A stretch of DNA of 64,000 bases from Campylobacterales bacterium. Its GTDB lineage: Bacteria > Campylobacterota > Campylobacteria > Campylobacterales > QNZT01. Both the position numbers and the translations under genes were made by a program. Positions within the stretch are counted from its first letter, which is position 1, and every line of letters starts with the position of its first letter. Below, piece after piece: positions 178 through 63,866 of the stretch. The notes under the pieces are model-generated. The model was not told the DNA's origin. It did not search any database and was given only the letters and a program-made list of their open reading frames with translations. Location of the stretch: the NCBI GenBank assembly GCA_024278835.1, contig JAJRSK010000042.1:30-64029 (forward strand), given 5' to 3'.

Positions 178-1500
178 ATGCGAAAGGTTGTTTTATCTCT
201 GTTTGTAGCTTTATCTCTCTTTGCAGATAGTGCAGATGAACTTTTAGATGGTTTTGATGATGCTCCAAAAGTAGATAATGTAGCCGATGACTTACTTGAT
301 GGATTTGACGATGAAGTAAAAGAGAGTGTAGCAAGTGATGAAAAAAACCCATTGCAAAGGTGGGGTATCGAAGGGAAATTTACCCAATCTGCTGCCTATA
401 GCTTTCACAATGACGCACCTCATGATGGACTCAGTATGTTTAAAAGTGCGCTCTTTTTGGAGTATAATTATGCGCTTTGGAAGGATTTTAAACTCAAAAT
501 TAATGGGGTAGGGTTTTATGATACCTCGTATCTTCTCAAAGGGCGAGATGAATTTTCTGATGAGGATATCGATGCGCTTGAGAGTGAAGTAGAACTCTAT
601 GATGCCTATATTCAAGGTGCACTCACAGATAGATTGGATATCAAAGCAGGACATCAAGTTGTAGTCTGGGGGAAAAGTGATACCATTCGTATCACAGATG
701 TCATCAATGCCCTTGACAATCGTCGTCCTGGGATGACAGATATCGAGGATTTGCGTTTGCCACAGGCGATGGTAAAGCTAGACTACTATCATGATAACTG
801 GCGAATATCTCCTATCATGATAGTGCAACAAAAATTCAACAAAAACCCACCATTTCAAGGAGATTTTAACCCTAGTCCTAAAAAACTACCTTCGCAACAT
901 AGACCACATTCACCTTCTTATGCACTTAATGTCGCAGGGGAGTTTTCGGGTTTTGATGTGGATTTTTACTTGGCAGATATTTATGCGCAAGATGAGTTGG
1001 GGTTGCCTTTTGTCAATCACAACAAAAAGATGCAGATGGCTGGTGTGGCGTTAAACTATGTTTATGAGAGTTGGCTCTTAAAGGGTGAATTTGCCTATAA
1101 AAAAGATTTTGTTTTTTTACAGAGTGGTAATGAGAAGTTTGATAGAGTTGATTCACTTTTAGGATTTGAGTACAACGGCTTTGCCGATACGAAACTCAGT
1201 TATGATATTGCTAACAAACATATGCAAGATAAAAGTCCTCTTTTTGAACAAGATAGCTACCAGCACGCTTTTCGTATCACAAGTGATTTTCTCAATGCTA
1301 CCTTGCAGGCAAATTATCTTGTTTCGTTGTTTGGAAAAAAGCTTGATGAAGGCGGCTTTCAAAGGGCGTGGATGAAGTACGATATCGCTGATGGTATCAA
1401 TGCTAACTTTGGGATAGTTGACTATATTGGTGGATCTGCAATGTTTGATGCAATAGATGATAATGATATGATTTTTGTAGATATTTCATACAGTTTTTGA
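178..1500 (+). CDS. Secreted outer-membrane beta-barrel-like protein (DUF1302-like)
   Basis: RBS AAAAAGGA upstream. Signal peptide MRKVVLSLFVALSLFA. Duplicated acidic motif D(E/D)LLDGFDD. Block GHQVVVWGKSDTIRITDVINALD resembles DUF1302-type OM proteins. C-terminus ...VDISYSF is aromatic, as in barrels. Family recalled from memory, not searched. Confidence 0.5.
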   Translation: MRKVVLSLFVALSLFADSADELLDGFDDAPKVDNVADDLLDGFDDEVKESVASDEKNPLQRWGIEGKFTQSAAYSFHNDAPHDGLSMFKSALFLEYNYALWKDFKLKINGVGFYDTSYLLKGRDEFSDEDIDALESEVELYDAYIQGALTDRLDIKAGHQVVVWGKSDTIRITDVINALDNRRPGMTDIEDLRLPQAMVKLDYYHDNWRISPIMIVQQKFNKNPPFQGDFNPSPKKLPSQHRPHSPSYALNVAGEFSGFDVDFYLADIYAQDELGLPFVNHNKKMQMAGVALNYVYESWLLKGEFAYKKDFVFLQSGNEKFDRVDSLLGFEYNGFADTKLSYDIANKHMQDKSPLFEQDSYQHAFRITSDFLNATLQANYLVSLFGKKLDEGGFQRAWMKYDIADGINANFGIVDYIGGSAMFDAIDDNDMIFVDISYSF

Positions 1501-1565
1501 AAAAATACTTGTTTAAGAAAAATATAATTTACTTTTTGTATACTGTTCTTTAAAGGAATCAGTTT

Positions 1566-2483
1566 ATGAAAAAAATAGTAACGTTGTGTGTTGTGGCAAG
1601 TTTTGCATTTGCTAAAATGGAGACTGATGTTGCTTTGACTGCAGGATACAATAAGTTAGATCAACCGTATTATGTATATTCACATCGTGCTTTTTATGGT
1701 GTTAGGGCAGGAGTTTACATAGATGATCATATTGGCTTTCAGATTGGGTTTGAAAAGCCCGATCAGGCAAACTGTATCGGCTTGCAGTTAAAAAGATATT
1801 ATGCAAATACTTTATTAATGACAAAACTAGCTAATGGTCTTAAGCCCTATGGTGTAGGAACATTAGGCTATGAAACGAGTTCTGCTGATGATGATTATAG
1901 ACCTAGTCAAGCTTTTTTAGGTCTAGGTCTTGGTGTGAAGTATGATATTAATCAAAATTTTAATCTGTTTCTTGAAACTAGAGCGTTAAAAAGTCTAAAG
2001 AGTGATGATTTAACACTAGCTACAACACTGGGACTTGGATATAGCTTTGATACAGGGTATGCAACTTCTAGTATGCTCAATGATGAAGTAAAGGTAGTGC
2101 ATAAAAAGCAGAACATTACCAGACCTAAAATCAGACCAGTAAGGATAGAAAAACCTATGCCTACTCTGCCAGTAGCAAGTGAGCTAAATGTCTCTTATGA
2201 TATAAGAAAACCTATTATTTCTAAAACGATAGTGGTAAAACCTGCTTCTTCTCAAGGTAACCTTTTTGTGCAAATCGTAGCACTTACCACAAGTTCCCCA
2301 AGGTCTGCAGTGAGAAAACTACACGCAGAGGGAATCAGCAATGTTCATGTTAAGAAAATGTATCAAAAAGGAACATCTTACTCTTTTGTTGTTGTGGGTC
2401 CTTATGAGACAAGAGCCTCTGCTAGTAGAGCGCTTAGGAAACTAAAAGCACATCATGCAGGGGCATTTATCAAGAATTTTTAA
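1566..2483 (+). CDS. Small OMP-like barrel domain fused to a C-terminal SPOR (peptidoglycan-binding) domain
   Basis: Signal peptide MKKIVTLCVVASFAFA. N-terminal ~160 aa has Gly/aromatic alternating strands. C-terminal LFVQIVALTTSSPRSAVRKL...VVGPYETRASASRALRKLK fits the SPOR pattern. Confidence 0.5.
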   Translation: MKKIVTLCVVASFAFAKMETDVALTAGYNKLDQPYYVYSHRAFYGVRAGVYIDDHIGFQIGFEKPDQANCIGLQLKRYYANTLLMTKLANGLKPYGVGTLGYETSSADDDYRPSQAFLGLGLGVKYDINQNFNLFLETRALKSLKSDDLTLATTLGLGYSFDTGYATSSMLNDEVKVVHKKQNITRPKIRPVRIEKPMPTLPVASELNVSYDIRKPIISKTIVVKPASSQGNLFVQIVALTTSSPRSAVRKLHAEGISNVHVKKMYQKGTSYSFVVVGPYETRASASRALRKLKAHHAGAFIKNF

Positions 2484-4545: not shown

Positions 4546-5763
4546 GTGGGTTTTGTAAGTTTTGAAGAGTCGATAGAGAAATTGTTAGGTAGTATGGATG
4601 CTTCTTATTCTCATTCTCATGAAAAAGTTTTTTTGGATGATGCTGTTGGGCGTGTGTTGGCTGAGGATATCGTAGCAGATCATAACTCTCCGGCATATCC
4701 TACTTCGGCGATGGATGGTTATGCGTTTAAATTTGATGATCAGAGTTTAGAACGTCTAAAAATACAAGGGGTGATCCCTGCTGGTGAGTATAAAGATGAA
4801 GAGATAGTTGGAGGGATGTGTATCAAAACTTTTACGGGCTCTTTAGTCTGTTGTGGTGCAGATACGCTGATTCCTATTGAAAATGTTGAAGTAGATGGTG
4901 ATGAAATCATCATCAAAGAAGAGGTTCCTTTTGGATGTTCTGTGCGTCCTGTGGGGGAAAACTATAAAGCGGGTGAAGTGCTCATTGCCAAGGGAGCGAA
5001 ACTAGATTTTGCAGAGATTGGTGTGCTGGCAAGTTTGAATGTTTCTCAAGTTGCAGTGTATAGAAAACCAAAAGTAGCGGTACTATCCACAGGGAGCGAA
5101 ATCCTTGATGTGGGTGAGAAACAAACCAACCCTTCACAAATACGCTCTTCCAATCAATTCACCTTAGCTGCACTTACTAAAAAAGTAGGGGCAGATGTGC
5201 ATCGCTCTCCTTTGGAAAAAGATGATAAAGAGACGATTGAGCGTAGTATCAAGGATGCTCTCTCTCATAGTGATATCGTGGTGACGACGGGTGGGGTGAG
5301 TGTCGGGGATTATGACTTTGTCAAGGATATCTTGGCTGGTTTGGATGCGGAGTATATCACCGAAGGTGTGACGCTGAAACCGGGACAACATATAAAAATA
5401 GTGAAGGTAGGGAAAAAGTATATCTTTGCACTTCCTGGTTTTCCTTATAGTTCGACGGTAACGTTTATACTTTATGTTATCCCGATGATTCGCTATATGA
5501 TGGGGATGGAGCCGAAACTGCCGATGAAAAAAGCAAAACTAAAGAGTGCTTATAAGAAAAAATCAAATAAAACAGAAGTAGCCGTAGGAAATCTACACTT
5601 TGTAGAGAATGAATATCTTATTGATTTTAAAGGAAAACGCGCAGGTTCTTCAGCGATATTGACCAATATGCTAGGGACTGTGGCGCTTATCATGATAGAT
5701 AAAGAGAGTGGTGATTTAGTAGCGGGTTCTATGGTGGATTTTATAGATATGGATGCGCTCTAG
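4546..5763 (+). CDS. moeA: Molybdopterin molybdenumtransferase MoeA
   Basis: 405 aa with MoeA motifs SPAYPTSAMDGYAF, VLSTGSEIL and VVTTGGVSVGDYDFV. GTG start. Confidence 0.85.
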   Translation: MGFVSFEESIEKLLGSMDASYSHSHEKVFLDDAVGRVLAEDIVADHNSPAYPTSAMDGYAFKFDDQSLERLKIQGVIPAGEYKDEEIVGGMCIKTFTGSLVCCGADTLIPIENVEVDGDEIIIKEEVPFGCSVRPVGENYKAGEVLIAKGAKLDFAEIGVLASLNVSQVAVYRKPKVAVLSTGSEILDVGEKQTNPSQIRSSNQFTLAALTKKVGADVHRSPLEKDDKETIERSIKDALSHSDIVVTTGGVSVGDYDFVKDILAGLDAEYITEGVTLKPGQHIKIVKVGKKYIFALPGFPYSSTVTFILYVIPMIRYMMGMEPKLPMKKAKLKSAYKKKSNKTEVAVGNLHFVENEYLIDFKGKRAGSSAILTNMLGTVALIMIDKESGDLVAGSMVDFIDMDAL

Positions 5764-5767
5764 GTCA

Positions 5768-6313
5768 ATGTTGCAAAAAAAACTTCTTAATCTACTACTA
5801 ACGCTTGGCGTTTTAGTCTATATCGTCTTTGAAGAGTTGATATGGGAGCGATTTGCTCTGCCTATCATCAACTATATCAACGCGTTGAAGGTGTTGAAAA
5901 GATTAGAGGTGTATCTACAAACAGTCAATAGCAAACTTATTTTGGTGATATTTGTTTTGTTGTTTGTGTTGGTTGAGTTTCAAGGTCTTTATGCAGGCGC
6001 ATTGTTTTTAGAGGGAAAGGTCTTGCATGGTGCGCTTCTTTATGCAGGGAAAATTCCTATCGCTGCTTTTACTTTCTGGCTTTTTCGTGTGACAAAGCCT
6101 AAACTTATGGAATTTGCATGGTTTGAAAAGTCTTATCTGTGGATGATGGGTATCATAGAGAAGATAAAAGCTAGTGAAGTCTATCGCAATATCAAGGCGC
6201 GTACAACAAAGATAAAAGCATTTGTCAAAGCGCAGTTTTTTAAAGATAAAAGTGCGATAAAAAGGAAGGTGCAGACTATTTATAAGAGGTTAAAGGCACT
6301 TTTTAAGATGTAA
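5768..6313 (+). CDS. Membrane protein, unknown function
   Basis: ORF with 3-4 hydrophobic helices and a Lys-rich tail. ATG 5768 chosen within the ORF-track frame. Confidence 0.4.
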   Translation: MLQKKLLNLLLTLGVLVYIVFEELIWERFALPIINYINALKVLKRLEVYLQTVNSKLILVIFVLLFVLVEFQGLYAGALFLEGKVLHGALLYAGKIPIAAFTFWLFRVTKPKLMEFAWFEKSYLWMMGIIEKIKASEVYRNIKARTTKIKAFVKAQFFKDKSAIKRKVQTIYKRLKALFKM

Positions 6314-6331
6314 ATAATTTCAGAGGTGCCA

Positions 6332-6865
6332 TTAAAAAAATAGGAATTTTTTCTTTTTCTCCACATATCCTATAAGTATATCTTGGGATAGAATGTGTCC
6401 CTGCATGGTATCTTCGATATTTTCTTTACTAAGACCTTTTGGGTTTAAATTTTCTATATCAAGTGCATAGATTCTAAATCTGTATCCATGTTTTCCACTT
6501 CCCTTTGGTGGGCAAGGGGCGATATAGGTTTTTTTCCCATTGGTTGTGAGGGCGAGTTTTGAACCCTTTGGATGGATTTCACCCTCGTTGATAGATGTCG
6601 TCGTAGATGGTATGTCATATACAATCCAATGATTCCACATGCCACCTACTGCATCTGGATCATCCACAATCAACACAAAGCTCTTAACATCTTTAGAGTG
6701 AAAATTCCAACTTAGTTGAGGGGATAAACTTTGACCATAACAGGTATGCTTTTGTGCGAGGGTCTCTTTATTTTTAAAATTTAAGCTTGTAAGTTTCATC
6801 TGTGGCTCCTGTGCTAGTAGTGCTGTAATAAGGAGAGTATATATAAAAAAGAATTTTATTTTCAT
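6332..6865 (-). CDS. YbhB/YbcL-family PEBP (Raf-kinase-inhibitor-like) periplasmic protein
   Basis: Signal peptide MKIKFFFIYTLLITALLA. Motifs FVLIVDDPDA, WNHWIVYDIP and GKHGYRFRIYALD are typical of bacterial PEBP. Confidence 0.75.
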   Translation of the reverse strand: MKIKFFFIYTLLITALLAQEPQMKLTSLNFKNKETLAQKHTCYGQSLSPQLSWNFHSKDVKSFVLIVDDPDAVGGMWNHWIVYDIPSTTTSINEGEIHPKGSKLALTTNGKKTYIAPCPPKGSGKHGYRFRIYALDIENLNPKGLSKENIEDTMQGHILSQDILIGYVEKKKKFLFF

Positions 6866-6941
6866 GTGTAGTCCCTCTTTAATTTCAGGTTACTGTCTGT
6901 GCGACGATAACGAATTGTAACAAATTTTATTAGAGATATCC

Positions 6942-6994
6942 TTGACAAAGAAACTCTTTTCCCCTATACTTTGCATCACAAAGTAATTTGCAAA
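6942..6994 (+). promoter_or_regulatory. Sigma70-like promoter plus candidate operator for the membrane-protein/HTH/LolA-like/RND operon
   Basis: TTGACA (6942-6947), 17 bp, TATACT (6965-6970). It is followed directly by the inverted repeat TTTGCA-N13-TGCAAA (6970-6994). ATG at 7004. Confidence 0.45.
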
Positions 6995-7003
6995 GGAAAA
7001 TAT

Positions 7004-7618
7004 ATGAGCGAAAAAGAGGAAGCACTACAGCATCTGAGTGAGATAAAATCAGCATTGGTAGATAGGAATTCATTTTTTCCATATAACTACAATGCCCTTG
7101 TCAGCTGGGGTGTTATTGGAATGTTTTTGACGATGGTGATGCCTTTTGTTATAAAAGAGTCTGTGTTGCAGGGGACAATTTTGACAGCTATCATGATGCT
7201 TGTTGGTTTTGTGGTAGAGGGATTTTTGACCAAGCGGGTCAATGAAGATTATGATATAGAAACTTGTACTAAAAAACAGCGTTTTATCGCGACAACATTT
7301 GGCATAGGTACACTGTTTGGATTGGCGATGACAGCACTTTTGGCACAGGCAGGAGTTATCATCCCTATTTTTGCAGTATGGATGTTTGTTTGTGGCATGG
7401 GTGATTTGTCGGTGGGATATGTGCTCAATATGAAGATATTTACACTTCAGGCATTTATCATGATAGGGGCTTCATTGCTTGTTTTGATACTCTCCTTTTT
7501 TATGGGAGATTTGGGCAATTTGGATAGTGCATTTTTCTATTTTGCACAAGGCTTGTCATTTGCTACCGTGGGTCTGCTTCCTATCATGATAGCTAGAAAG
7601 TTACAAAAGGATAGCTAG
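7004..7618 (+). CDS. Polytopic membrane protein, unknown function
   Basis: About 5-6 TM segments. RBS AAAGGA 7 nt before ATG 7004. Its stop overlaps the GTG start of the HTH gene. Confidence 0.45.
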   Translation: MSEKEEALQHLSEIKSALVDRNSFFPYNYNALVSWGVIGMFLTMVMPFVIKESVLQGTILTAIMMLVGFVVEGFLTKRVNEDYDIETCTKKQRFIATTFGIGTLFGLAMTALLAQAGVIIPIFAVWMFVCGMGDLSVGYVLNMKIFTLQAFIMIGASLLVLILSFFMGDLGNLDSAFFYFAQGLSFATVGLLPIMIARKLQKDS

Positions 7619-7896
7619 TGTTTGATCCACTATTGCATCAAGAAGTGCGTTCAAAATTGATTTCTCTACTCATCGCCAATGATGAACTGCCTTTTATGGC
7701 GCTCAAAGAGATGCTTGAAGTCACCGATGGCAATCTTTCTAGTCATTTAAACAAATTAGAAAAAGGTGCCTATATCATGATAGAGAAGAGTTTTGAAGGG
7801 AAGCGTCCAAAGACGGTGGTGCATATCACTAAAGAGGGAAAAAAGGCGTTTAAGGCGTATATAGAGACATTGAAAAAATTTATCGAGGAGAATTAA
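7618..7896 (+). CDS. Winged-helix transcriptional regulator (HTH_34-like)
   Basis: 92 aa. ...FMALKEMLEVTDGNLSSHLNKLEKGAYIMIEKSFEGKRPKTVVHITKEGKKAF fits the small winged-helix family pattern. Confidence 0.7.
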   Translation: MFDPLLHQEVRSKLISLLIANDELPFMALKEMLEVTDGNLSSHLNKLEKGAYIMIEKSFEGKRPKTVVHITKEGKKAFKAYIETLKKFIEEN

Positions 7897-8649
7897 ATGA
7901 GAAAAATTATAGTAGCAAGTTTATTAGTAGCATCAAGCCTTTTGGCTTTGACAAACCAAGAGATAGCAGACAAGGCAGATAAGGTAACGGATGGTTTTGA
8001 GAGCTCTATCTCAAAAACCGAGATGACCTTGGTAAATGCGAGTGGGCAAAAGTCCATACGGGATTTGTTGATGAAAACGCTAGAAGGAGAAAATGGTGAT
8101 AAAACGATTTCTGTTTTTCTCTCTCCTGCAGATGTAAAAGGGACAAAGGTACTAGGTTGGGAACATGCTGATCGAGATGATGATCAGTGGTTGTATCTAC
8201 CAGCACTCAAGCGTGTCAAGCGAATTGCAAGTCGCAACAAGTCGGGCTCTTTTATGGGGAGTGAGTTCTCTTATGAAGATATCGGCAATCAAAATCCTAG
8301 TAAGTTTACCTTTGAAGGTGAGCCTAAAACGGTGATGTTGGATGGTGTGGAGTGCTATCAAGGTGCACGCGTGCCAAAAGATAAAAACTCAGGATACACC
8401 AAGCAAGTCACTTGGGTAGATACTAAAGATTTTTTGATTCGTAAGATTGATTATTATGATAGAAAAGAAGAGCTTTTAAAGACGGCTATTTTTTATGACT
8501 ACAAGCAGATAGAGGGTGTGTGGAGAGTAGGAAAAATAGAGATGAAAAATCATCAAAATGATAAATCTACCATGTTGATTTGGAAAGAGGACAAGATAAA
8601 AGCAGGATTAAAAGATAAGGATTTTAACAAACGGGAGCTCAAAAAATGA
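7897..8649 (+). CDS. LolA-like outer-membrane lipoprotein-sorting-type protein
   Basis: Signal peptide present. DQWLYLPALKRVKRIASRNKSGSFMGSEFSYEDI is the hallmark block of the LolA_like family that accompanies RND exporters. Confidence 0.7.
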   Translation: MRKIIVASLLVASSLLALTNQEIADKADKVTDGFESSISKTEMTLVNASGQKSIRDLLMKTLEGENGDKTISVFLSPADVKGTKVLGWEHADRDDDQWLYLPALKRVKRIASRNKSGSFMGSEFSYEDIGNQNPSKFTFEGEPKTVMLDGVECYQGARVPKDKNSGYTKQVTWVDTKDFLIRKIDYYDRKEELLKTAIFYDYKQIEGVWRVGKIEMKNHQNDKSTMLIWKEDKIKAGLKDKDFNKRELKK

Positions 8650-15327: not shown

Positions 15328-15362
15328 CTCGTCTCCTTAGTTTTAAATTTGTTTACATCGAA

Positions 15363-50508: not shown

Positions 50509-51039
50509 ATGTTACAACATATCAAGCAGGGGCTGATTGATTATATCCATGCCTTAACAGTCTATGACTATATTGCATTTGCTTGGTTGTTGTTTCTTTT
50601 TCTTATCATCCTGACCCTAGCTATTTTGCTGGGGCGTAAAAAACCTACCCTTGCTATCTTTCTTATCATGATAGTCATTCTTTTGATGTTTGTCGCCCCT
50701 TTTGGCATAAAATATTTTTTAGATAAAACGGTACGAAAAGTAGATGTTGTGACCGATAAAATCTCTAAGTTACATTTTGCTTCCTCCTTGATAGTCACAG
50801 GTCATCTGATAAATGTAGGTAAAATTCCTTACCAAAAATGCACTATCAACGCCAAAGTTTTTAAAATAAGTGAAAATAAATACAGAAATATTTTAAATAA
50901 TTTAAAGCCTTTGCGAAATAAGACGATAGTAGTAGATAAGAATATCTCAGAGGGGGAAGAGGCAATGTTTAAGATAGTATTTGACAAGTTTACCTATAGT
51001 AAAGAGTACAATGTCACGCTATCTGGGGAATGCTACTGA
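50509..51039 (+). CDS. DUF2393-like membrane protein, paralogue 1
   Basis: Two N-terminal TM segments plus a beta-rich domain. Architecture parallels the next ORF. Confidence 0.45.
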   Translation: MLQHIKQGLIDYIHALTVYDYIAFAWLLFLFLIILTLAILLGRKKPTLAIFLIMIVILLMFVAPFGIKYFLDKTVRKVDVVTDKISKLHFASSLIVTGHLINVGKIPYQKCTINAKVFKISENKYRNILNNLKPLRNKTIVVDKNISEGEEAMFKIVFDKFTYSKEYNVTLSGECY

Positions 51040-54408: not shown

Positions 54409-57400
54409 ATGATGCAAAGAGTGAAGTGGTTATATTACCCTTTGCTCTTTGTACTTATCTCTTTTTCTTCTTTGCAGGCTAGTTCTTTTACAGATATCAT
54501 TTTTGATGCGGCAGAAGTAGAATTTAAAATAGAAGCAGAAGATGAGATTTATGTGAGTACTTCAAATCACGTTAAAGTCAATGTAGAACTTAAAGAAAAG
54601 AAGCCACAAGTTACACAACCTACTCTCTCATTTTATCGCTACGATAAAGATTCTGATGCTTACCTAACTGTATCACAAACCGATTTTTCGCCCAATGAAG
54701 CTGTGAGTGGATCCTTTAATCCAATGACTCCTTTGTTGTTAGAAGATGGGAGTGAGATAGATATAAGCAAAAAGATACCAGCCATCAAATGCCTAGTATA
54801 TAAGCGCAATGAACCTTTGATAGTGCTCTATCATGATAGCAATGTAAGTGAAAAAAAAGCTATCAAATTGATTATCAGCACAAAAAAAGATAAGGAGATT
54901 ATCCGTTTAAGAAATAGCGATACAAATAGTTCTCTTTTTGTCGGCTATATTAACACCACAACAAAATGTCTCAAGAGATGTGACGGAAAGCTTTTTGTAG
55001 AAAAAGGGACACAAATCAGAGCATCTTTAGAGGAGTTAAAGAAGCGCAAAAGTAGATCTTTTACACCTATGATAGTGGCAGTTGCTAGTGTAGAGAGTGA
55101 AACACTTAGCACATTAGCAGAGGTGACAGAAAAAGAGGCAGATATATGGATAACGCTTCATGCTAGTAAAGATAAAGCCTCTTTGGGTGAGTTTATAAAA
55201 TATACCTGTACTATTGAAAACAGAGGTGAAGCGGATGTTGTGGATGCAAAGCTACATAATCTTCTCTCAGATGGTGTGGTATATAGAAGAGATACTTTTA
55301 TGTTTGAGGATAGTAAGCAGCGTAATCTTCGCTTTGCAAAAGATAAAAAGTCTTTTATTTTTCCTTTCTCTATCAAGGCAGGTGAAGAGAAGGAGTTTTC
55401 ATTTGTTACGCAGGTAGATATCGATGCTAAAAAGTCCATCCAAAGTCTCTGCTATGTAGCATTTGATACCAAGCAGTCAAATCAAAGTGCTGCTAACACA
55501 ACAATAGAGAGAGATTTTGATAACAAGTCGCTTATCGTAGGAGAACTAAGCCTTAAGGGAAGTGATGCAAATATCTCTTTAGCGGGTGTACGCTTTTACT
55601 TAGAAAATGGTACCTTTGTCCATAGTGATAAGAATGGAAAATTTCATTTTGAAGGTCTCTCTCTTGGTTCTCATGTTGTCAGTATAGATAGTGACAGTAT
55701 CTCTGGGAGATTTGTGAGCAAAGAGTGCAAGGCAAATGCTAGAAATATGGGCAGTAAAACTTCTATCTTTGTCGATACAGAATTTTCACACATTCAAAAA
55801 GTACGCTTCTGTTTAGAGGAGGATAAGCAGACTAAGGCACTAGATGCTTCGCTCTCATTTTCTGTGCCAGAGATAGCAAAGGAGACGATGCCCTCTTTTG
55901 GTGAAAAGGATTTTAAAAAGCATAAAAAGAGTGATATATTTTTATGGCCAAGAGAAGATTTTGTACCACCTATGCCTTCTCTAAAAGTAGCATTTTTACA
56001 TCAATCAGATGAAAAAGTTGTACTCTATCTCAATGGGGTAAAAGTAGATATGCTCAACTATGATGGGTTTGTTAAAGCGCGTAACAAAAAAAGAACTATC
56101 AGTAAATATCGTGGTATCGATATCATAGATGGGGACAATACACTAGAAGCAAAGGTTTATGCTAAAGATGGCGCTTTAAAAAAGGTGCTCAAGCGAAAAG
56201 TACACCTCTCTACTTCACCCGTACGAGCAAAAGTGATAGAGGAGAAATCCCTACTACTTTCAGATGGAAAAAATCCACCAGTCATTGCGGTGCAGTTTTT
56301 TGACGCGAGTGGATATCCTCTAAGGTCAGGGATGGTGGGGACATTTAGCGTTGAAAAACCATATATGTCAAAGGATAGATTGGACACCTTAAAAGATAAT
56401 CCCCTCTCTAGTATCAATGGAGAGGATAAATATACTATTTTAGAAGATGGCATTGCTTATATCGCTTTGCAAGAGACCACGACTTCGGGTGAAGTGAAGC
56501 TTCATTTTCCTTTTCAACAGAGCAATGAATATACAAAAGTATGGCTCTCATCAACACCAAGAGCGTGGTTTATCGTAGGGTTTGCAGAGGGGAGTGTAGG
56601 GTATAAGACTATCAAAGATACCTTAAAGCCAAGCAAGGCGTCACACCTCTATCATGATAAACAGATTTCATTTTTTGCCAAAGGAAAGATAGGCGCTGAC
56701 GCACTTTTGAGTATCGCTTATGATAGTGGAAAAGAGCGTAGCTTAGAAGTTTTAGAGGCGATAGATCCGCGTAGTGAATATACGGTATATGGGGATGAAA
56801 GCATGCAACAAAATGAAGCCCCAAGTAGTAAAAAACTCTATATTAAGATAGAAAAAAAGAGTTTCTATGCGCTCTTTGGAGACTTTGATACAGGGCTAGA
56901 TGCGCATGAATTGAGTCGCTATTCGCGTCGTGTAAATGGTATCAAGTCAGAACTCAAGGCTGAGCGATTTGAATATAACGCTTTTGTAAGTCAGAGTAAA
57001 ACAAGCTATATGAGGCAAGAGCTTCGAGGCGATGGCACAAGTGGACTCTATCATCTTAAAAGTAAGGCTATCATGATAGGCTCTGAAAAAGTGACTATCC
57101 AGGTGCGTGATAGATACCGTGATGAAGTGATTGTTTCAAAAAAAGTATTAAATCCTCTTTTGGATTATAATATAGATTATCAAGCAGGAACGCTCTACTT
57201 TAAAGAGCCTATATTGCGTAGAGATAGGGCTGGAAATCCGCAATTTATCATCATAGAAGCAGAGGTAGAGGATGGTGGCAAAAAGCGTCTCTCTTATGGT
57301 GGACGTGGGGCGATGAAGTTTTTTTCTGGCAAGCTAGAAGTAGGTATGAGTCTGCTTGGTGAGGAAGATAAAGATGATGAGATAGATACGCTCTATGGCT

Positions 57401-58905
57401 TTGATGCGAAAATAAATGCAAGTCAAAATCTTGTTTTCAATGCCGAATATGCCCAAAGTAAAAAAAATATAGAGAACAACAGCAGCGTTGCCAAGGCATA
57501 TCTAGCGGAACTTACCTATCATGATAGGTATAGTGAAACAAAGCTCTATTATAAGATGCAAGAGGATTTTTTTGGTTTTGGACAACAAAATCTCTCTCAA
57601 AGTGGTACAAGAAAATATGGTGTGGATTCCACTATAAATTATTGGGAAAATATGGCTATCAAGTTGGCGCTTTATGGAGATGAGGTGTTAAAGAGTGGTG
57701 AAAAGAAAAATGTAGCAGAAGCATTTTTGCAGTATCACAAAGCTAATTTCTTGGCAAATATAGGCTATCGCTATGGTAAATCCAACCTCAAAGGTGATAA
57801 AGGGGCTTCGCAACTGCTCTCTTCTATCTCAAAAAGATTTTTTCATAACAAGGTGAAACTTTCAGCCGCTTATGACTATACGCTTGGAGGAAAATCAGAT
57901 ATGCTTTTAAATCGTGCATTTGTGGAGGCATCCTATTTTGTCAATCAATATGTAGAAATCTTTGCCAATCATGAGATAGAAGAGGGTGAAACTATTAAAA
58001 CCAACCAGAGTCGTGCTGGTATCAAAGGTAGACCATGGCAGGGGGCAACAGTAGAGAGTGCAATGGTCAATGAATTTGATAATGATACGGTGCGTCTATT
58101 TGGACTTTTGGGTATCAATCAGAGTTGGCAAGTGCGTAAAAACCTTATCATCAACGGCTCAATTGAGCGAGAGCAGACAGTAGAGGGTGAGGGAGAGGAT
58201 TTTACAGCGTATGCTTTTGGTGTAAATTACCGTAAAAATAGGTGGGTTTATAGCGCAAAAACGGAGTATAGAACTGCCAAAACAGAGGATAAAATCAACC
58301 TAGACCTTGGGGTATATACAGAGGTGAATAAAAACTTGGGCTTGGCATTTGGCAGTAGAACACACCTTGTGAGAGATGAAGAGGGAGATTCCCATACAAC
58401 AAGTGCTAATTTCTCCTTGGCGTATAGACCCGAAGGTGGTGTGATGGTGATAAATCGTCTAGAGTACCTCTATGAGAGCGATGAGCATAGTAAAAGTGCC
58501 AAAACAGTTGAACGATTTTTGTGTGTGGCACATCCGAGCAAAAAGAGTACACTATCGGGGCATTATGGATTAAAATATACGCAAGATACGATAGATGACA
58601 AAGCGTATGATTCGTGGATTGATACGCTTGGTGTCGCGTACCTCTATGATGTAACAGATAAAATAGAGTTGGGATTTGGGGCTAGTTTATTGCACGCTTA
58701 TGATAGTCAAAGTTTGCTAGAGAGTTTGGGTGTGTATGTAGGGTATAACCTCTTTAAAAACGCTTATGTAGGTCTTGGATATAACTTTGTAGGGTATGAA
58801 GATCCAGATTTTAATAGTTTACGAAATAGTCAAGAGGGAGTTTTTGTGAAATTTCGCCTAAAATTTGACCAAGAGTCTTTAAAAAATATTGTTGATAAGT
58901 TTTAA
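54409..58905 (+). CDS. 1498-aa outer-membrane protein: DUF11-like and CarboxypepD_reg/Cna-B-like domains plus a very large C-terminal beta-barrel (P4)
   Basis: Signal peptide ...FSSLQASS. LGEFIKYTCTIENRGEADVVDAKLHNLL. GVRFYLENGTFVHSDKNGKFHFEGLSLGSHVV. The last ~750 aa are alternating Tyr/Gly-rich strands ending ...GVFVKFRLKF...DKF. Confidence 0.55.
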   Translation: MMQRVKWLYYPLLFVLISFSSLQASSFTDIIFDAAEVEFKIEAEDEIYVSTSNHVKVNVELKEKKPQVTQPTLSFYRYDKDSDAYLTVSQTDFSPNEAVSGSFNPMTPLLLEDGSEIDISKKIPAIKCLVYKRNEPLIVLYHDSNVSEKKAIKLIISTKKDKEIIRLRNSDTNSSLFVGYINTTTKCLKRCDGKLFVEKGTQIRASLEELKKRKSRSFTPMIVAVASVESETLSTLAEVTEKEADIWITLHASKDKASLGEFIKYTCTIENRGEADVVDAKLHNLLSDGVVYRRDTFMFEDSKQRNLRFAKDKKSFIFPFSIKAGEEKEFSFVTQVDIDAKKSIQSLCYVAFDTKQSNQSAANTTIERDFDNKSLIVGELSLKGSDANISLAGVRFYLENGTFVHSDKNGKFHFEGLSLGSHVVSIDSDSISGRFVSKECKANARNMGSKTSIFVDTEFSHIQKVRFCLEEDKQTKALDASLSFSVPEIAKETMPSFGEKDFKKHKKSDIFLWPREDFVPPMPSLKVAFLHQSDEKVVLYLNGVKVDMLNYDGFVKARNKKRTISKYRGIDIIDGDNTLEAKVYAKDGALKKVLKRKVHLSTSPVRAKVIEEKSLLLSDGKNPPVIAVQFFDASGYPLRSGMVGTFSVEKPYMSKDRLDTLKDNPLSSINGEDKYTILEDGIAYIALQETTTSGEVKLHFPFQQSNEYTKVWLSSTPRAWFIVGFAEGSVGYKTIKDTLKPSKASHLYHDKQISFFAKGKIGADALLSIAYDSGKERSLEVLEAIDPRSEYTVYGDESMQQNEAPSSKKLYIKIEKKSFYALFGDFDTGLDAHELSRYSRRVNGIKSELKAERFEYNAFVSQSKTSYMRQELRGDGTSGLYHLKSKAIMIGSEKVTIQVRDRYRDEVIVSKKVLNPLLDYNIDYQAGTLYFKEPILRRDRAGNPQFIIIEAEVEDGGKKRLSYGGRGAMKFFSGKLEVGMSLLGEEDKDDEIDTLYGFDAKINASQNLVFNAEYAQSKKNIENNSSVAKAYLAELTYHDRYSETKLYYKMQEDFFGFGQQNLSQSGTRKYGVDSTINYWENMAIKLALYGDEVLKSGEKKNVAEAFLQYHKANFLANIGYRYGKSNLKGDKGASQLLSSISKRFFHNKVKLSAAYDYTLGGKSDMLLNRAFVEASYFVNQYVEIFANHEIEEGETIKTNQSRAGIKGRPWQGATVESAMVNEFDNDTVRLFGLLGINQSWQVRKNLIINGSIEREQTVEGEGEDFTAYAFGVNYRKNRWVYSAKTEYRTAKTEDKINLDLGVYTEVNKNLGLAFGSRTHLVRDEEGDSHTTSANFSLAYRPEGGVMVINRLEYLYESDEHSKSAKTVERFLCVAHPSKKSTLSGHYGLKYTQDTIDDKAYDSWIDTLGVAYLYDVTDKIELGFGASLLHAYDSQSLLESLGVYVGYNLFKNAYVGLGYNFVGYEDPDFNSLRNSQEGVFVKFRLKFDQESLKNIVDKF
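57513..57530. repeat. Longest perfect version (18 bp) of the iterated palindrome
   Basis: TACCTATCATGATAGGTA equals its own reverse complement. It is one of at least 40 TATCATGATA copies (see findings). Confidence 0.9.
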
Positions 58906-58958: not shown

Positions 58959-60977
58959 ATGAAATTTCTACTCAACCCGCTCATCAAATTTTTAAGCTCT
59001 ATCTCGTATAGTGCGAAGTTTATGTTTATCGGTGTCATTGCAGTTACCTATACATCATTTTTGGTCTATCAAAACTATGTATCACTCTCTTCTGATGTAG
59101 CCTTTTCTCAAAAAGAGTTAGATGGGGCAAAGTTGCTTCCAAGTGCGAAGTCGTTGATTCTTCAAACACAAAAGCTCCGTGGCACAACGGCACTTCTACT
59201 TAGTGGTGAAGCTTCTGTTTCTAGTAAAGTTGCTACACTCTCTCAAGATGCAAAAAAGCAGTTGGAACAGGTAAAGCGTGAGATAAGTTCATCACCTATA
59301 CAAGGCTTGGATAAATTGGTTTCCGAGATGGAGAATAAGCTAAACCACCTGAGCTCCTCTGCCCCATCAATGCCAGCAAAAGAGGCATTTGTTGCTTATA
59401 CGGCGCTCATAGAAAAAGAGTTGGATTTGATTGTGCTCATCGGCGATAACGCCAACCTTATCTTGGACCCCGATTTAGATAGCTTTTATATGATGGATGC
59501 GGTTATCAATAAATTGCCACAGATATTTGAAGCAACAGGCAAAGCGAGAGGATTAGGGGCATCTGTATTGAAAAAAGGTATGATTGACAAAGAGCAAGAG
59601 CTAAAATTGATGGAGTTAATCTCTGTAAACAACTATAATATACATGCTCTTGAAAATGGCTTTCAATCTGCTTATAGTGCAAATCCAGCTATTAAGGAGA
59701 GAGTAGATGGCAAGAAGGAACAATTAAAAAATCAGATAACTAGCTTCTCTAAGGATACACTCACTAATGCTGTTAAAGCAAGTGCTATGGAGGGGAAAGT
59801 ATATTTTCAAAAAGGTACCGATGTCATAGATACAGCAGATAGCCTCTATCATGATGCACTAGCAGAACTTGAAATATTGCTTCAAATCCGTGTCGATGCC
59901 CTAAAAGCAAAAGAGATGACACTGTTTATTGAAGCAACGCTTTTTTTCCTCTTTTTACTGGCATTTTTTATGGCATTTTATCACTCAGTAAGTGGCGCGG
60001 TTGGTGCTATGGTTAGCCAACTCAAGGAGATAGAAGAGAGCAAAGATTTATCGCGTGATATCATGATAGATACCAAAGATGAACTTAGTGAAATCGCTAA
60101 GGCGTATAACTCTTTTAGGGTTGCTTTGCATCAGACGATGCAAGATGCTATATCGGCAGTAGATTCAAGTACAAATGAAGCACAGAGCATGCAAGAGAGT
60201 TCTAAAGAGATGAGTGAAAACTCTAAAAATATGTCAGATATCATCTCTCAAGTAGCACAAAAAGGTGAAGATATCAGACATCAACTCGAAGATTCAAAAG
60301 CCTTAGCACAAAACTCAAAAGAGCAGATAAGTACCGCCTATGAGACGCTTCAAAGTGCAACTACTTCTATTCAAAACTTGGCTGCACAAGTGGAAGAGAG
60401 TTCACACAAAGAGATGGAGATGGCAGATAAAATCAACCAACTCAGCCAAGATGCCAATGATGTCAAAAATGTTCTACATGTCATCAACGACATTGCAGAA
60501 CAGACCAATCTCTTGGCACTCAATGCAGCGATTGAAGCAGCGCGTGCAGGGGAGCATGGTAGAGGATTTGCAGTCGTGGCGGATGAGGTGCGTCAACTAG
60601 CAGAAAAGACACAAAAATCTCTCTCTGAAATCAACGCTACTATCAATGTCATCATGCAAAATATCACTGAAGCTTCTTCTGAGATGAATCAAAATGCCAA
60701 AGATATCTCTTCGATGACAGAAACTTCAGAAGGAGTACTTAAAGAGGTAGAGTGGGTCAATACGATTATGGATGAAGCAACAAAACAGATAGAGCTTTCA
60801 GCCCAAAGCATCGAAAAAAATGCAGAAGGTGTTGAATCCATGGCAAATGAACTACAAGAGACGGATAAACTCTCAGTGAGTAATTCGAAAAAAGTGCACT
60901 CTATCACAGATAGTTCATCTACACTTGCAGGCAGAGTCAATGAAATTAAAGAGAAAGTTAACGCCTTTGTACTATAA
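58959..60977 (+). CDS. Methyl-accepting chemotaxis protein with NIT-like periplasmic sensor
   Basis: The sensor region with [16 protein letters not shown] recalls the nitrate/nitrite-sensing NIT domain. HAMP domain. Signalling hairpin [38 protein letters not shown]. Confidence 0.85.
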
Positions 60978-62168
60978 AACCGAATTTTCTCCGGCTCTAT
61001 AGCCGCTAGACCAAGCCCAGTGGAGGTTATAGCCTCCACAATCTCCATCTATATCCACGACTTCTCCTGTAAAATATAATCCTTTCACTAACTTTGATTC
61101 CATTGTTTTGGGATTTATCTCTTCTGTCAAGATACCCCCAGCCATAATCTCCGCTCCCTTAGCCCCTCGTGTACCTGAAATGGAGACTTTGAGGTTTTTT
61201 AGTGTGTAGGCTAGGGTGTTGATGGTTTTGTTGTTTAAGGGTGTGTTGGCGTCTAATTTTGCCACTATCATGATAGGTTCTATCAGTTTTTTGGGGATGA
61301 TGCCATTGAGCCATAAGTAGAGAGGGAGTTTGAGGGGAAGTTGTTTTTGTAAAAGGGCTTTGAGTGCCTGTTGTGAAAAATCAGGCAGGAGGTCTATCAT
61401 GATAAAGACATCTTGCTTTTTCATCGTCGCTCGCGAAGCGATACGGCTAAGGTCAAGTATCGCCGAACCAGAGAGTCCATAGGAGGTAAAAAGTAAATCT
61501 CCTTTTATCCCCATCTTGGGTTGGTTATCGACATATATCTCCATCTCTGCTTCTATCTTGACGCCAGATGCTTTGGTGAAAACTTTTTCAGGCGAGTTGA
61601 GTTGGACAAGTGCGGCAAAAGGTTTTTCTACTTCGTGTCCAAACGCCTTGGCAAAGGCATATCCAGACTCACTAGAGCCTAGGTTTGGCATGGCACCTGA
61701 ACCTGTGGCGATGATGACAGCATCGGCTAGTGTGTGTGTATCATGATAGTGTAGGATAAAGTGCGCATTCTCTTTTTCTATCTTTTCTATCTCACACTCT
61801 TTGACGAAAGTTACGCCATATTTTTTACACGCAAACCCTAGAAAATCTACCACACAAGAGGCTTGATGCGAGAGGGGATAGAGCCTAGTACCATTGCCAC
61901 GACGAAGTTGTAAACCAAGTTCATTAAAAAATTTTTTGGCATCAAACTGTATAGTTTCTTTGGCAAAATGGGGGTGTTTTCCGTGGTAATTTTCAAGTGA
62001 GATATTGTCGTTGGTGATGTTGCATCGACCGTTACCAGAGGCGTGAATCTTTTTGCCGATCTTGGCAGATTTTTCATAGACGGTGACTTTGGCACCTGCT
62101 TTGGCGGCGGTGATGGCAGCGACGAGTCCTGAAGCGCCTGCTCCAATGATAGCGATATCTTTTTTCAT
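60972..62168 (-). CDS. HI0933/BaiN-like NAD(P)/FAD-dependent oxidoreductase
   Basis: [31 protein letters not shown], and C-terminal [25 protein letters not shown]. Confidence 0.8.
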
Positions 62169-62638: not shown

Positions 62639-62644
62639 AGTTAA

Positions 62645-63289
62645 ATGATTGAACAATATAGTGGAATCACTTTAGATAATCTCACCATTTGTAAAAAATG
62701 TGACACCTTACACCGTAAAAAATTGCTCAAGATTGGTGGTGTGGCAAAGTGCAGAGAGTGTGGTTCGGTACTTTATAGGCGACATAGAAACTTGGTGGAT
62801 TATGGTTTGGCGATTGGGATTGCTGCACTTATCTTTTTTATCATCGCTAATGCTTTTCCTATCGTGGATATTTCTCTTCGTGGGGTACATCAAGCGATTT
62901 CTCTGCCTTCTGTACTTTTGTCTCTTTTTGAAAATGGATTTTTCTTGGTAGGGATTTTTTGTTCCTTTGTGATATTTATCTTTCCTTTTACTGTGCTGGT
63001 GGTTTTTATCTGGATTATGTGGCTCTTAAAGATACGGCGTGGGGAACAGGCAGTAGAGTCTTTGTTGGTGCTTCTTGCTAAAATTCTTCCATGGAATATG
63101 ACAGAGATTTTTCTCATCTCTGTATTTGTAGCCTTGGTGAAGCTTATCGGGTATGCGCAGATTCATTTTGGGCTCTCTTTTTGGGGACTTATCGCCTTTG
63201 TAGCGTTTGATTTGTATCTCTCAAAAAGTATCAGTATCGATGAACTTTGGCGGGCTAAAAAGAGAATATTTAAGGGTAAAGATGTCTAA
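62645..63289 (+). CDS. pqiA: Paraquat-inducible protein A-like, first half-protein
   Basis: Zinc-ribbon CKKCDT...CRECGS followed by 4 TM segments. Same architecture as the next ORF. Confidence 0.7.
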   Translation: MIEQYSGITLDNLTICKKCDTLHRKKLLKIGGVAKCRECGSVLYRRHRNLVDYGLAIGIAALIFFIIANAFPIVDISLRGVHQAISLPSVLLSLFENGFFLVGIFCSFVIFIFPFTVLVVFIWIMWLLKIRRGEQAVESLLVLLAKILPWNMTEIFLISVFVALVKLIGYAQIHFGLSFWGLIAFVAFDLYLSKSISIDELWRAKKRIFKGKDV

Positions 63290-63866
63290 GTATATAAGAT
63301 GCCCCATCTGCGAAGCAGTCAATCTCGATACCACATCCAAGATAACTTGTAGACGATGCAAGCAGAAAATCTATCATGATAAGGGTTATAGCTATCAGCA
63401 AACACTTGCTTATTTAATCACGGCGATGATTTTATTTATCCCTGCCAATCTCTATCCGATGCTCAGTACCAATACACTGGGAGAGACCACGACAAACACT
63501 ATCATCGGTGGCGTGATCGTGTTGTGGGAACATGGCTCTTATCCTATCGCCTTGATTATACTTTTTGCTTCTGTTTTTGTGCCAATTTTGAAATTTATCA
63601 TGATAAGCTATCTTTTAGTATCAGCTAAATATGGCAGAGGGTCACAAAGAGTGGATAAACAGAAACTTTTTTATATCACTGAGATTATAGGGCCTTGGTC
63701 GATGATAGATGTCTTTGTTGTGGCGATACTCGCATCTTTGGTGCAACTTTCTATCGTGCAGATTGAGCCAGGAGCGGCGACGACGGCATTTGCTGCGATG
63801 GTGTTTTTTACGCTTTTATCAGCACTAAGTTTTGATACACGATTAATATGGGAGAAAAATAGATGA
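63282..63866 (+). CDS. pqiA: Paraquat-inducible protein A-like, second half-protein
   Basis: CPICEA...CRRCKQ plus 4 TM segments and GPWSMIDVFVVAIL. ATG 63282 overlaps the previous stop by 8 nt. Confidence 0.7.
   Translation: MSKYIRCPICEAVNLDTTSKITCRRCKQKIYHDKGYSYQQTLAYLITAMILFIPANLYPMLSTNTLGETTTNTIIGGVIVLWEHGSYPIALIILFASVFVPILKFIMISYLLVSAKYGRGSQRVDKQKLFYITEIIGPWSMIDVFVVAILASLVQLSIVQIEPGAATTAFAAMVFFTLLSALSFDTRLIWEKNR

Follow-up and report, generated by a model that had tools for sequence, protein, structure and literature searches.

Hyper-abundant genomic words are rare, and the well-studied examples are the highly iterated palindrome HIP1 (GCGATCGC) of cyanobacteria and, in two proteobacterial families, the DNA uptake sequences (DUS) of the Neisseriaceae and the uptake signal sequences (USS) of the Pasteurellaceae. 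Uptake-sequence copies number 1471 and 1892 in the genomes of H. influenzae and N. meningitidis, respectively (Findlay & Redfield 2009, PMC2817400). The function of HIP1 is still debated, the proposals being DNA exchange, chromosome structure and biased repair. HIP abundance goes with a cognate, often orphan, methyltransferase for an internal sub-site (Elhai 2015, PMC4390886). Preprints report that HIP1 raises transformation in a way that depends on methylation (Kamoku & Nielsen 2024, 10.1101/2024.09.10.611283, where a Chi-like role is also suggested) and that it co-varies with the DNA-uptake machinery (Rodriguez-Cruz et al. 2026, 10.64898/2026.06.24.733823). Here we describe the perfect 10-base palindrome TATCATGATA, which with its preferred flanking bases reads YTATCATGATAR, in a 64-kb stretch of DNA from an uncultured Campylobacterales bacterium (contig JAJRSK010000042.1, 93% coding; the whole stretch is referred to below as the window). 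It is almost certainly a lineage-specific hyper-abundant genomic word of the class to which HIP1 and DUS/USS belong. A role for the word in DNA exchange is proposed only tentatively, and the full statement, class and mechanism together, falls a little short of an even call.

Abundance and form of the word

The window contains exactly 40 copies of TATCATGATA. Dinucleotide-preserving shuffles gave an expectation of 0.20 copies, with a maximum of 2, and an order-3 Markov model gave 1.0. For the 36 copies that lie in coding sequences, shuffling the order of codons within each gene gave 0.32 copies (maximum 3 in 1000 shuffles), and shuffling synonymous codons with every protein retained gave 7.1 (maximum 15), leaving the word 5 times above expectation even when the proteins are held fixed. 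A sequence-only reading of the window, made by a model from the letters and their open reading frames (ORFs), had counted at least 40 exact copies against about 0.2 by chance, an excess of more than 100-fold; both figures hold, the codon shuffle giving about 130-fold, and the excess stands against codon-shuffled and Markov nulls. The positions given in that reading were right for 38 of the 40 copies, the other two starting at 29732 and 50664 rather than at 29742 and 50674. Its figure of about a dozen sites with one mismatch was too low, the count being 21, and one of its examples, placed at 36044, is really at 36035. By extrapolation, a genome of this lineage would hold more than 1000 copies. 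As a perfect palindrome in many-fold excess over both composition-aware and codon-aware nulls, the word behaves as the HIP class does.

The enriched unit is the 10-mer itself. Of 49 copies of the inner 8-mer ATCATGAT, 40 lie within TATCATGATA, and of 71 copies of TCATGA, 49 lie within that 8-mer. The preceding base is C or T in 34 of the 40 copies and the following base is G or A in 37, exactly as had been read, which amounts to 71 of 80 half-sites when symmetrised; CTATCATGATAG occurs 12 times, again in agreement with the earlier count. Beyond one base on either side the information content of the flanks is close to zero. The full word is thus YTATCATGATAR, with a constrained length of 10 to 12 bp. 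The perfect 18-bp palindrome that had been pointed out around the 34th copy (57513-57530) was also confirmed.

Enrichment falls away very steeply with mismatches. Within coding sequences and relative to the codon shuffle, exact copies were 130-fold over-represented (36 observed, 0.28 expected), sites with one mismatch 2.7-fold (19 and 7.1), sites with two mismatches 1.1-fold (81 and 72) and sites with three not at all (439 and 441, 1.0-fold). The spectrum is all-or-none. When positions 1 to 5 were symmetrised, the one-mismatch sites fell on them 5, 4, 1, 6 and 5 times, and no bias to the outer positions is visible in this small set of 21. The spacing of the 40 copies is near exponential, with a coefficient of variation of 1.07, and looks random over the 64 kb.

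Single-strand structure was considered as the function of the word and rejected, the hairpin of the 12-mer being practically without stability (0 kcal/mol) and the corresponding 16-mers reaching just -1.7 to -2.6 kcal/mol. All four intergenic copies had been placed in hairpins by the sequence-only reading, which is correct for two of them, partly so for a third and incorrect for the fourth. The copies at 20338-20347 and 20363-20372 are the 5' and 3' arms of one hairpin with a 15-bp stem (-24.4 kcal/mol, z -6.5) lying just 3' of the stop codon of the ORF 18885-20330. The copy at 21502-21511, upstream of a gene for an AAA+/WHD ATPase, is partly within a hairpin (z -3.4), and the one at 43362-43371 folds no better than shuffled sequence (z -0.5). 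The hairpin pair is a small-number result, as are the positions of the one-mismatch sites and the island density discussed below.

Placement in genes and conservation among relatives

The 36 genic copies are spread over 27 genes of unrelated function on both strands. As in the sequence-only reading, 23 copies read xxT-ATC-ATG-ATA (Ile-Met-Ile, IMI), 13 read TAT-CAT-GAT-A (Tyr-His-Asp, YHD) and 4 are intergenic; no copy uses the third frame, a trivial absence because TGA occurs in it. Genes hold 0.60 and spacers 0.93 copies per kb, which we take as equally dense, and the position of copies within genes looks even. Such dispersal through 27 genes and 4 spacer sites, outside any longer repeat, is again a property of the HIP class.

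The proteins of the window carry the imprint of the word. IMI is enriched 7-fold and YHD 16-fold, and the exact word encodes 23 of the 25 IMI and 13 of the 14 YHD tripeptides, and there is a deficit of the neighbouring tripeptides LMI, IMV and IML; it is therefore the DNA word that shapes the proteins and not the reverse. The excess might instead be a side effect of a preference for these two peptides or their codons, or of a signal acting in RNA, and the enrichment of IMI and YHD themselves could be cited in favour of this. However, one DNA word is common to two unrelated peptides, two frames, both strands and the spacers, it exceeds expectation when the proteins are fixed, its synonymous positions are invariant whereas the same codons vary elsewhere, the peptides closest to IMI are depleted, and an RNA signal would not require a palindrome. 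We consider a peptide or codon preference to be excluded on these grounds, and the explanation as a whole, RNA signal included, to be very improbable.

Relatives were drawn from a species-representative collection by means of the NuoG-like protein of the window, with more found through a 1498-aa repeat protein and the AAA+ ATPase; the collection holds no genome identical to the window. By NuoG, with amino acid identities of 88%, 79% and at most 70%, the best relatives are metagenome-assembled genomes (MAGs) that carry the label uncultured Sulfurospirillum sp. or Campylobacterales bacterium; MAGs bearing the motif include GCA_054040595.1, GCA_054028155.1, GCA_054019895.1 and CAZCUH01, and sisters free of it include JALSQA01 (L003) and CAZYZD01 (L011). 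By the AAA+ ATPase the clade comprises 15 sequences with 85-96% identity, and the next ones lie no higher than 73%. At least eight related assemblies bear TATCATGATA at 0.42-0.84 per kb, and its density, 0.62 per kb in the window, drops with phylogenetic distance. Among the close relatives it is 0.42 in L001, 0.78 in L200, 0.69 in L202, 0.84 in L203, 0.68 in L205, 0.56 in L206 and 0.51 in L207; it is 0.17 in L002, 0.08 in L208 and about 0 in L003-L041. Since independent assemblies bear the word at orthologous positions, an assembly artefact is excluded.

The sites are far more conserved than ordinary sequence. L001 (84% nucleotide identity to the window) keeps 5 of 5 window sites where ordinary 10-mers are kept at a rate of 0.23, L200 (85%) keeps 13 of 14 against 0.24, L202 (83%) 10 of 12 against 0.20, L203 (78.5%) 8 of 12 against 0.125, L205 (76%) 9 of 12 against 0.093, L206 (77%) 6 of 12 against 0.114 and L207 (72.5%) 7 of 10 against 0.074. 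In these seven relatives, then, 50-100% of sites are kept versus 7-24% of background 10-mers (P 1e-3 to 1e-7). L210, a contig of GCA_054040595.1, keeps 12 of 16 window sites against a background of 0.40, and all of its own aligned sites are common to the window. Within the motif, 152 of 154 comparisons of third-codon positions gave identity, versus a background of 60-68%, and outside it there is free variation in these codons (ATC, ATA, CAT and others). Since one reading frame leaves motif positions 1, 4 and 10 synonymous and the second leaves 3, 6 and 9, constraint extends over the entire word. An intergenic copy (21502) is retained in L210 as well, and the word at 57069 is unchanged among relatives in which the codon before it varies between GCT, GTT and CCT and that after it between GGC and GGT. 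Greater conservation of sites and of their constituent codons than of controls is likewise found in the HIP class; Xu et al. 2018 (PMC5861425) applied the same two tests to HIP1 with the same outcome. What is maintained is the word itself, and not a protein, an RNA or a mobile element.

Alignment of orthologues shows how the sites arose. At five sites in the nuo operon, relatives outside the clade have different residues at the aligned positions (IVV, KML, IEL or YHQ, for example), and on the right side of the window relatives likewise have YKA, LVD, LHV or HHD where the window has IMI or YHD. The sites arise through substitution of ancestral codons, at times with radical amino acid changes, and not through insertion; they are lineage-specific codon replacements. 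L002 is intermediate, with some sites in common with the window and ancestral codons at others, and copies therefore accumulated over time along the lineage.

These observations bear on the idea that the copies belong to a miniature mobile element as its core, this being either a miniature inverted-repeat transposable element (MITE) or one resembling repetitive extragenic palindromic (REP) sequences, or that insertion left them as traces. The same 10-mer is indeed found within longer conserved repeats of other organisms, among them the ~120-bp repeats on contigs L101, L113 and L127 and the satellites of L061 and L073. In the window, however, the flanks hold almost no information beyond one base, 90% of copies are in frame, gene lengths and orthologue alignments are undisturbed, and the sites originated by substitution. 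The lack of conserved flanks, which the sequence-only reading had named as the mark of a mobile repeat, together with the origin by substitution excludes a mobile element, and we give this explanation next to no credence. The repeats of other organisms can be described further. The ~120-bp element is conserved and multi-copy and contains (A)TATCATGATA(T) twice or three times, at spacings of 11 and 24 bp, beside ...GATATTTTCGTGCCAACCCTG; it occurs on L101, L108, L109, L113, L119, L127, L147, L148, L163, L166, L181, L183 and L193 and is a true repeat element of some other organism. The satellite of L061 and L073 has a unit of 171 bp that contains TATCATGATA.

The individual copies can now be placed. 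At the left end of the window, a gene for a DUF1302 outer-membrane protein (178-1500) holds a YHD copy at 787-796 and, 26 bp from it, an IMI copy at 813-822, and moeA (4546-5763) holds an IMI copy at 5688-5697. In the region covered by L210, IMI copies are retained in that relative at 7456-7465 and 7582-7591 (hypothetical gene 6971-7618), 7773-7782 (HTH_34 winged-helix regulator gene, 7618-7896), 8681-8690 (hypothetical gene 8646-9809) and 11122-11131 (RND/MMPL transporter gene, 9908-12187), as are the intergenic copy at 21502-21511 and three copies in a GGDEF-EAL gene (12289-14082) at 12372-12381 (IMI), 12853-12862 (YHD) and 13551-13560 (IMI). The GGDEF-EAL gene has a further IMI copy at 12354-12363, 18 bp from the next, which is TATCATGGTG in L210. 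Two other sites differ there: the YHD copy at 9168-9177 in gene 8646-9809 is TATCTAGATA, and the IMI copy at 20738-20747 in a hypothetical gene (20499-20885) is CATCATGATA.

The YHD copy at 17646-17655, in hypothetical gene 17211-17951, belongs to a segment (14945-20429) that is missing from L210; this segment has a GC content of 0.335, carries a two-component system and hypothetical ORFs, and holds three motif copies. Near its left edge a tandem repeat with a period of 33/66 nt and 2.5-5 copies (15061-15236) lies within a small minus-strand ORF (15043-15327).

In the nuo operon, IMI copies lie in nuoC (24403-25200) at 24615-24624, where sequences outside the clade have VMK, VMT or VMR, and in the NuoG-like gene (28680-30914) at 29732-29741 (IVV outside the clade), 30023-30032 (KML, DML or RMK) and 30752-30761 (IEL, IEV or IKV). 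All four are retained in L001. L210 retains them except for one mismatch at 30023, and L002 retains 30752, has one mismatch at 30023 and lacks 29732. A nuo antiporter-like subunit gene at the NuoM position in the operon (37673-39199) has a YHD copy at 38216-38225, retained in L001 and YHQ or NHQ outside the clade. The sequence-only reading had given this site (FLYHDST) and one in HisIE (LLIMIEQ) as examples, both correctly. In the same operon nuoD (25204-26435) is split in the window into two overlapping ORFs of 116 and 294 aa. At the junction (near 25519-25555) the window has GAAAAGAG whereas L001, L003 and L005 have GAAAAAGAG, the window being short of one A in a homopolymer run; NuoD of L210 is intact at 410 aa. 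Either the frameshift is real or the split stems from an error in sequencing or assembly.

Further right, a gene for a DUF7494 protein (40827-43184) has YHD copies at 41361-41370 and 42402-42411, both retained in L200 and L205 and replaced by YKA and LVD, respectively, in L206. The intergenic copy at 43362-43371 marks the edge of a second window-specific segment (43200-47650), and a hypothetical gene (46546-46977) has an IMI copy at 46569-46578, within this segment, and a YHD copy at 46735-46744. The segment is missing from L200, L205 and L206, has a GC content of 0.33 and an 804-aa ORF without a Pfam match, and contains three motif copies and 5 of the 21 one-mismatch sites of the window. Between an aminotransferase gene and a Band_7 gene (48601-48692) there is an intergenic element of ~75 nt with two hairpins, CTTGCC-GTAA-GGCAAG and TTGGTTGGGGGC-TTTG-CTCCCAATCAA. 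At least four tandem copies of it occur on metagenome contig L121 (FXBE01002965.1, 9-283), and it has no Rfam match; an Rfam scan of the window matched no family at all.

The IMI copy in hisIE (49823-50506) at 50074-50083 is retained in L200, L202, L203, L205 and L206, and the one in a DUF2393 gene (50509-51039) at 50664-50673 in the same relatives except L203, which has one mismatch. The gene for the 1498-aa repeat protein (54409-58905) carries four copies: YHD at 54829-54838 (retained in L202, L203 and L205, one mismatch in L200), YHD at 56650-56659 (retained in L200, L202, L203 and L205), IMI at 57069-57078 (retained in all five relatives) and YHD at 57517-57526 (retained in L200 and L202, CATCATGATA in L203, L205 and L206). 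The IMI copy at 60059-60068 in a chemoreceptor (MCP) gene (58959-60977) is retained in L200 only, other relatives having LHV, LHI or IVI. A flavoprotein gene on the minus strand (60972-62168) has IMI copies at 61266-61275 (retained in L200, L202, L203 and L206) and 61395-61404 and a YHD copy at 61739-61748, the last two retained in five of five relatives. Finally, pqiA (63207-63866) has a YHD copy at 63372-63381, retained in L200, L202 and L203, and an IMI copy at 63596-63605, retained in L200 and TATCTTGATA in L202 and L203.

A scan of metagenomes for close pairs of the word found about 12 more contigs with dispersed, in-frame TATCATGATA flanked by a pyrimidine and a purine. Copies on these contigs lie in housekeeping genes for AcrB, NadA, QueC, TsaD, BamA and NapB, and for one contig the best named match was "Campylobacterales bacterium". 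Many other contigs from the scan are unrelated elements that contain the 10-mer by chance. On contig L096 (1-9138) the copies are uneven, with 7 in the first 1.76 kb and 1 in a 5.4-kb efflux operon. This operon aligns at 75% nucleotide identity to L209, whose AcrB is 86% identical to that of L096, and it may have been horizontally transferred. L209 has no TATCATGATA in 23 kb (GC 0.32); it was considered as a clean motif-free sister comparison and set aside, its GC being 0.32 and the efflux operon being its only alignable part.

Among viral contigs, the close-pair scan found no phage with dispersed TATCATGATA, the only hits being operator-like clusters (L059, L063), the 171-bp satellite and chance pairs. 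The clusters, on IMG/VR contigs of GC 0.27-0.30 (L059 at 400-2200 and L063 at 500-2200), consist of 14 GTATCATGATAC-type palindromes in ~2 kb, mostly non-coding, often paired and adjoining TATAATATAG promoter-like boxes. Such an arrangement resembles an operator array from the early region of a phage, and the 10-mer is used differently here.

In other Campylobacterota lineages no comparable palindrome of their own was found. AAAGCTTT, TTAGCTAA, AAAATTTT and GCAATTGC were weighed as candidates and rejected as weak, with P 1e-2 to 1e-4 before correction for 256 palindromes. In L208, the nearest lineage without TATCATGATA as an abundant word, GCAATTGC occurs 4 times in 12.7 kb (5450-9266) versus 0.19 expected (P 5e-5 before the same correction); it encodes Ala-Ile-Ala, protein-level conservation is partial in other lineages, and it is probably not a second iterated palindrome.

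Candidate readers and roles

The most certain inferred step in the mechanism we propose is that a highly specific protein with two-fold symmetry would recognise the word in double-stranded DNA, because the palindrome is perfect, the single-strand hairpin is practically without stability and recognition appears all-or-none. Such a dimeric reader would have a specificity like that of a restriction-modification enzyme. The sequence-only reading had seen a methylase/restriction core in CATG or TCATGA, for which the sequence gives no support. Relative to the codon-aware null, CATG outside the motif is at expectation (163 observed, 170 expected) and TCATGA outside it is mildly enriched (32 versus 19.6), and no gene for a methyltransferase or restriction enzyme was found among the ORFs scanned. 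In the coding sequences of the window GATC and AATT are strongly avoided (77 versus 270 expected, z -12.7, and 271 versus 483, z -12.0), and TGATCA is low (13 versus 30), which looks like long-term restriction pressure at GATC and AATT. The presence of this signature at those sites and not at CATG argues against a CATG restriction enzyme and is neutral on an orphan methyltransferase, which is possible elsewhere in the genome. Methyltransferase sites are typically shorter than the constrained word of 10 to 12 bp, and a CATG or TCATGA site therefore cannot by itself account for the word.

A methyltransferase could also enter in another way, if the copies were the functionless by-product of motif-directed repair or conversion tied to such an enzyme, with near-matches being converted into the word and existing copies repaired back, along the lines of Elhai's methylation-dependent mismatch-repair model for HIPs or of very-short-patch repair. 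That the palindrome embeds CATG and TCATGA, typical methyltransferase targets, would suit this, as would the all-or-none spectrum with its small surplus of one-mismatch sites (2.7-fold), which conversion would yield, and the gradual build-up along the lineage, with L002 intermediate and sites gained singly. The clustering of 5 of the 21 one-mismatch sites in the window-specific 4.5-kb segment points the same way (P 0.017 uncorrected, although a Fisher test is not significant). However, all ten positions are protected, including the synonymous positions in both frames, which single-base T:G to C:G patch repair cannot explain, and the constrained word is longer than usual methyltransferase sites. 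The one-mismatch variants, in small numbers, show no clustering at the outer positions, unlike those of HIP1 in Elhai 2015, and the window ORFs scanned and the related contigs, which are not a whole genome, yielded neither a methyltransferase gene nor a Vsr-like one. We regard this explanation as unlikely.

Alternatively, the sites may bind an abundant chromosome-organising or nucleoid-associated protein and be selected one by one for replication-linked functions, segregation or folding of the chromosome rather than for any part in DNA exchange, as a denser analogue of the palindromic matS, SlmA-binding and Noc-binding sites. A DNA-binding protein that acts as a dimer would be well matched by a perfect palindrome of 10-12 bp, positions are strongly conserved, synonymous and intergenic ones included, genes and spacers are equally dense, and Xu et al. 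2018 (PMC5861425) drew this reading for HIP1 from similar conservation data. On the other hand, degenerate sites are tolerated by such proteins, yet variants with one mismatch show hardly any excess here, the spacing looks random (though 64 kb is too short for a periodicity of 10-90 kb), and no candidate protein was found among the window ORFs scanned and the related contigs. Known structural palindromes have tens of copies per genome, against the more than 1000 extrapolated here. We think this, too, an unlikely account, about on a level with biased repair. Site conservation alone cannot separate DNA exchange, a nucleoid-associated protein and repair.

The role we prefer is that of a tag of own or kin DNA. 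The word might act in uptake or processing during natural transformation, or in recombination, and the tag might depend on methylation of the CATG core, as has been reported for HIP1 and is known for RAATTY in Campylobacter. Copies would accumulate and persist through molecular drive plus selection, which is the least certain step. Put at its fullest, the clade may have independently evolved a HIP1- or DUS-like self-DNA tag, YTATCATGATAR, whose symmetric and possibly methylation-dependent reader biases uptake or recombination to kin DNA; we hold this to be possible but somewhat doubtful. In favour of DNA exchange are a density on the DUS/USS scale, the clade specificity, the close pair of copies that forms a 15-bp-stem hairpin right after a stop codon, and, as an anecdote, the normal density of the word in the two window-specific low-GC segments. 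By analogy, the steep over-representation profile resembles that of uptake sequences (Bakkali 2007, PMC1939737). Also in favour, HIP1, the nearest counterpart, is reported in the preprints cited above to promote transformation depending on methylation and to vary along with the uptake machinery, and Campylobacter has a methylated palindrome, RAATTY, as its mark in transformation.

Several points weigh against a role in DNA exchange. Known uptake sequences are non-palindromic. The effect on the proteome, 7-16 fold for tripeptides, is far stronger than the ~2-fold of USS/DUS (PMC2817400), and this may point to direct selection at each site rather than to drive. Positional conservation fits any DNA-level function equally well, and for HIP1 Xu et al. 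2018 saw in this pattern evidence of a part in chromosome structure. The organisms of the clade are uncultured and known only as MAGs, and the evidence comes from the window and ~200 kb of contigs of relatives and not from whole genomes. No methyltransferase, restriction or competence genes were found in the window ORFs scanned, which were not every ORF, and among 70 ORFs on 13 motif-rich metagenome contigs PADLOC found no restriction-modification component and Pfam found housekeeping genes. No reader linked to the motif was found among the window ORFs scanned and ~150 kb of related contigs. The small ORFs around the copies at 20.3-21.5 kb gave no DNA-binding match, and no candidate reader was found there.

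A gene with an NgoFVII-type restriction-endonuclease C-terminal B3-like domain (PF20731, E 3.8e-15) lies on L210 at 3-899 (GCA_054040595.1, JBPKYR010000015.1), directly upstream of a block that is syntenic with the window from 6941 onward; the window has no such gene there. A motif copy follows the stop codon of this gene, at 922.

Comparison with known systems

Full-text searches of the literature for the word, for the 8-mer as a palindrome and for uptake sequences in Sulfurospirillum or Epsilonproteobacteria returned only primers and unrelated matches, and a word of this kind appears to be undescribed outside cyanobacteria, Neisseriaceae and Pasteurellaceae. TATCATGATA is thus an independent example, with a different sequence, in another phylum, with a sharp specificity of 10-12 bp and with a stronger effect on proteins than USS/DUS. 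The clean phylogenetic boundary, with sister lineages that lack the word, means that a reader should be findable by comparing the gene content of existing MAGs, and the methylation hypothesis is testable with long-read metagenomes. In practical terms, the word is a cheap marker with which to bin contigs of this clade and flag foreign DNA in them. If it does prove to be a self-DNA tag, Campylobacterota would gain their first system of this kind, and the function of HIP1, a question now 30 years old, would gain a second, independent model.

Within the same phylum, the methylated short palindrome RAATTY marks DNA as acceptable in natural transformation of Campylobacter jejuni. It is a precedent for a palindromic, methylation-based self tag, but it is a degenerate 6-mer that is common by composition and not a hyper-abundant 10-mer written into genes, and its AATT core is strongly avoided in the window. 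REP and MITE sequences resemble TATCATGATA in being short, palindromic and present in many copies; unlike it, they lie between genes, possess a longer conserved body and multiply by insertion, whereas 90% of TATCATGATA copies are genic, in frame and born by substitution. Chi and KOPS are likewise over-represented short words tied to DNA processing. They are asymmetric and strand-skewed, and an oriented signal like theirs is excluded for TATCATGATA, which as a palindrome reads the same on both strands.

The likeness to DUS and USS is considerable. These too are clade-specific words of 9-12 bp present at about one copy per kb, and the 0.42-0.84 per kb of TATCATGATA in the window and eight related assemblies is on that scale. 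DUS pairs form hairpins in terminators, as the close pair of TATCATGATA does after a gene. Their copies also lie within genes in permissive frames and visibly alter tripeptide frequencies (Findlay & Redfield 2009, PMC2817400), and their over-representation is steep with respect to mismatch load (Bakkali 2007, PMC1939737). On the other hand, DUS and USS are not palindromes, the share of copies in ORFs is 65%, 49% and 34.5% in three species (PMC2817400) compared with 90% for TATCATGATA, and the tripeptide enrichment differs as described above. In addition, uptake sequences are missing from those genes of these species that have no homologues in relatives, whereas the window-specific segments here bear TATCATGATA. 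We would not yet file TATCATGATA as a DUS or USS.

The closest parallel is with HIP1 and its alternates, as the sequence-only reading had proposed, and it holds for every property tested. Both words are perfect palindromes in great excess (15-300-fold for HIP1, ~130-200-fold for TATCATGATA), both are dispersed through genes and spacers without conserved flanks, and in both cases variants or absence are lineage-specific. The tests of Xu et al. 2018 (PMC5861425) show sites and codons conserved beyond controls for both words, and each embeds shorter palindromes typical of methyltransferase targets. The differences are that TATCATGATA is AT-rich and 10-12 bp long whereas HIP1 is GC-rich and 8 bp long, that the one belongs to Campylobacterota and the other to Cyanobacteria, that the 21 one-mismatch variants show no bias to outer positions, and that the cognate methyltransferases known for HIPs (Elhai 2015, PMC4390886) were not found for TATCATGATA in the ORFs scanned. 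Because its sequence and phylum differ, TATCATGATA is not HIP1 proper, but it has every testable property of the HIP class.

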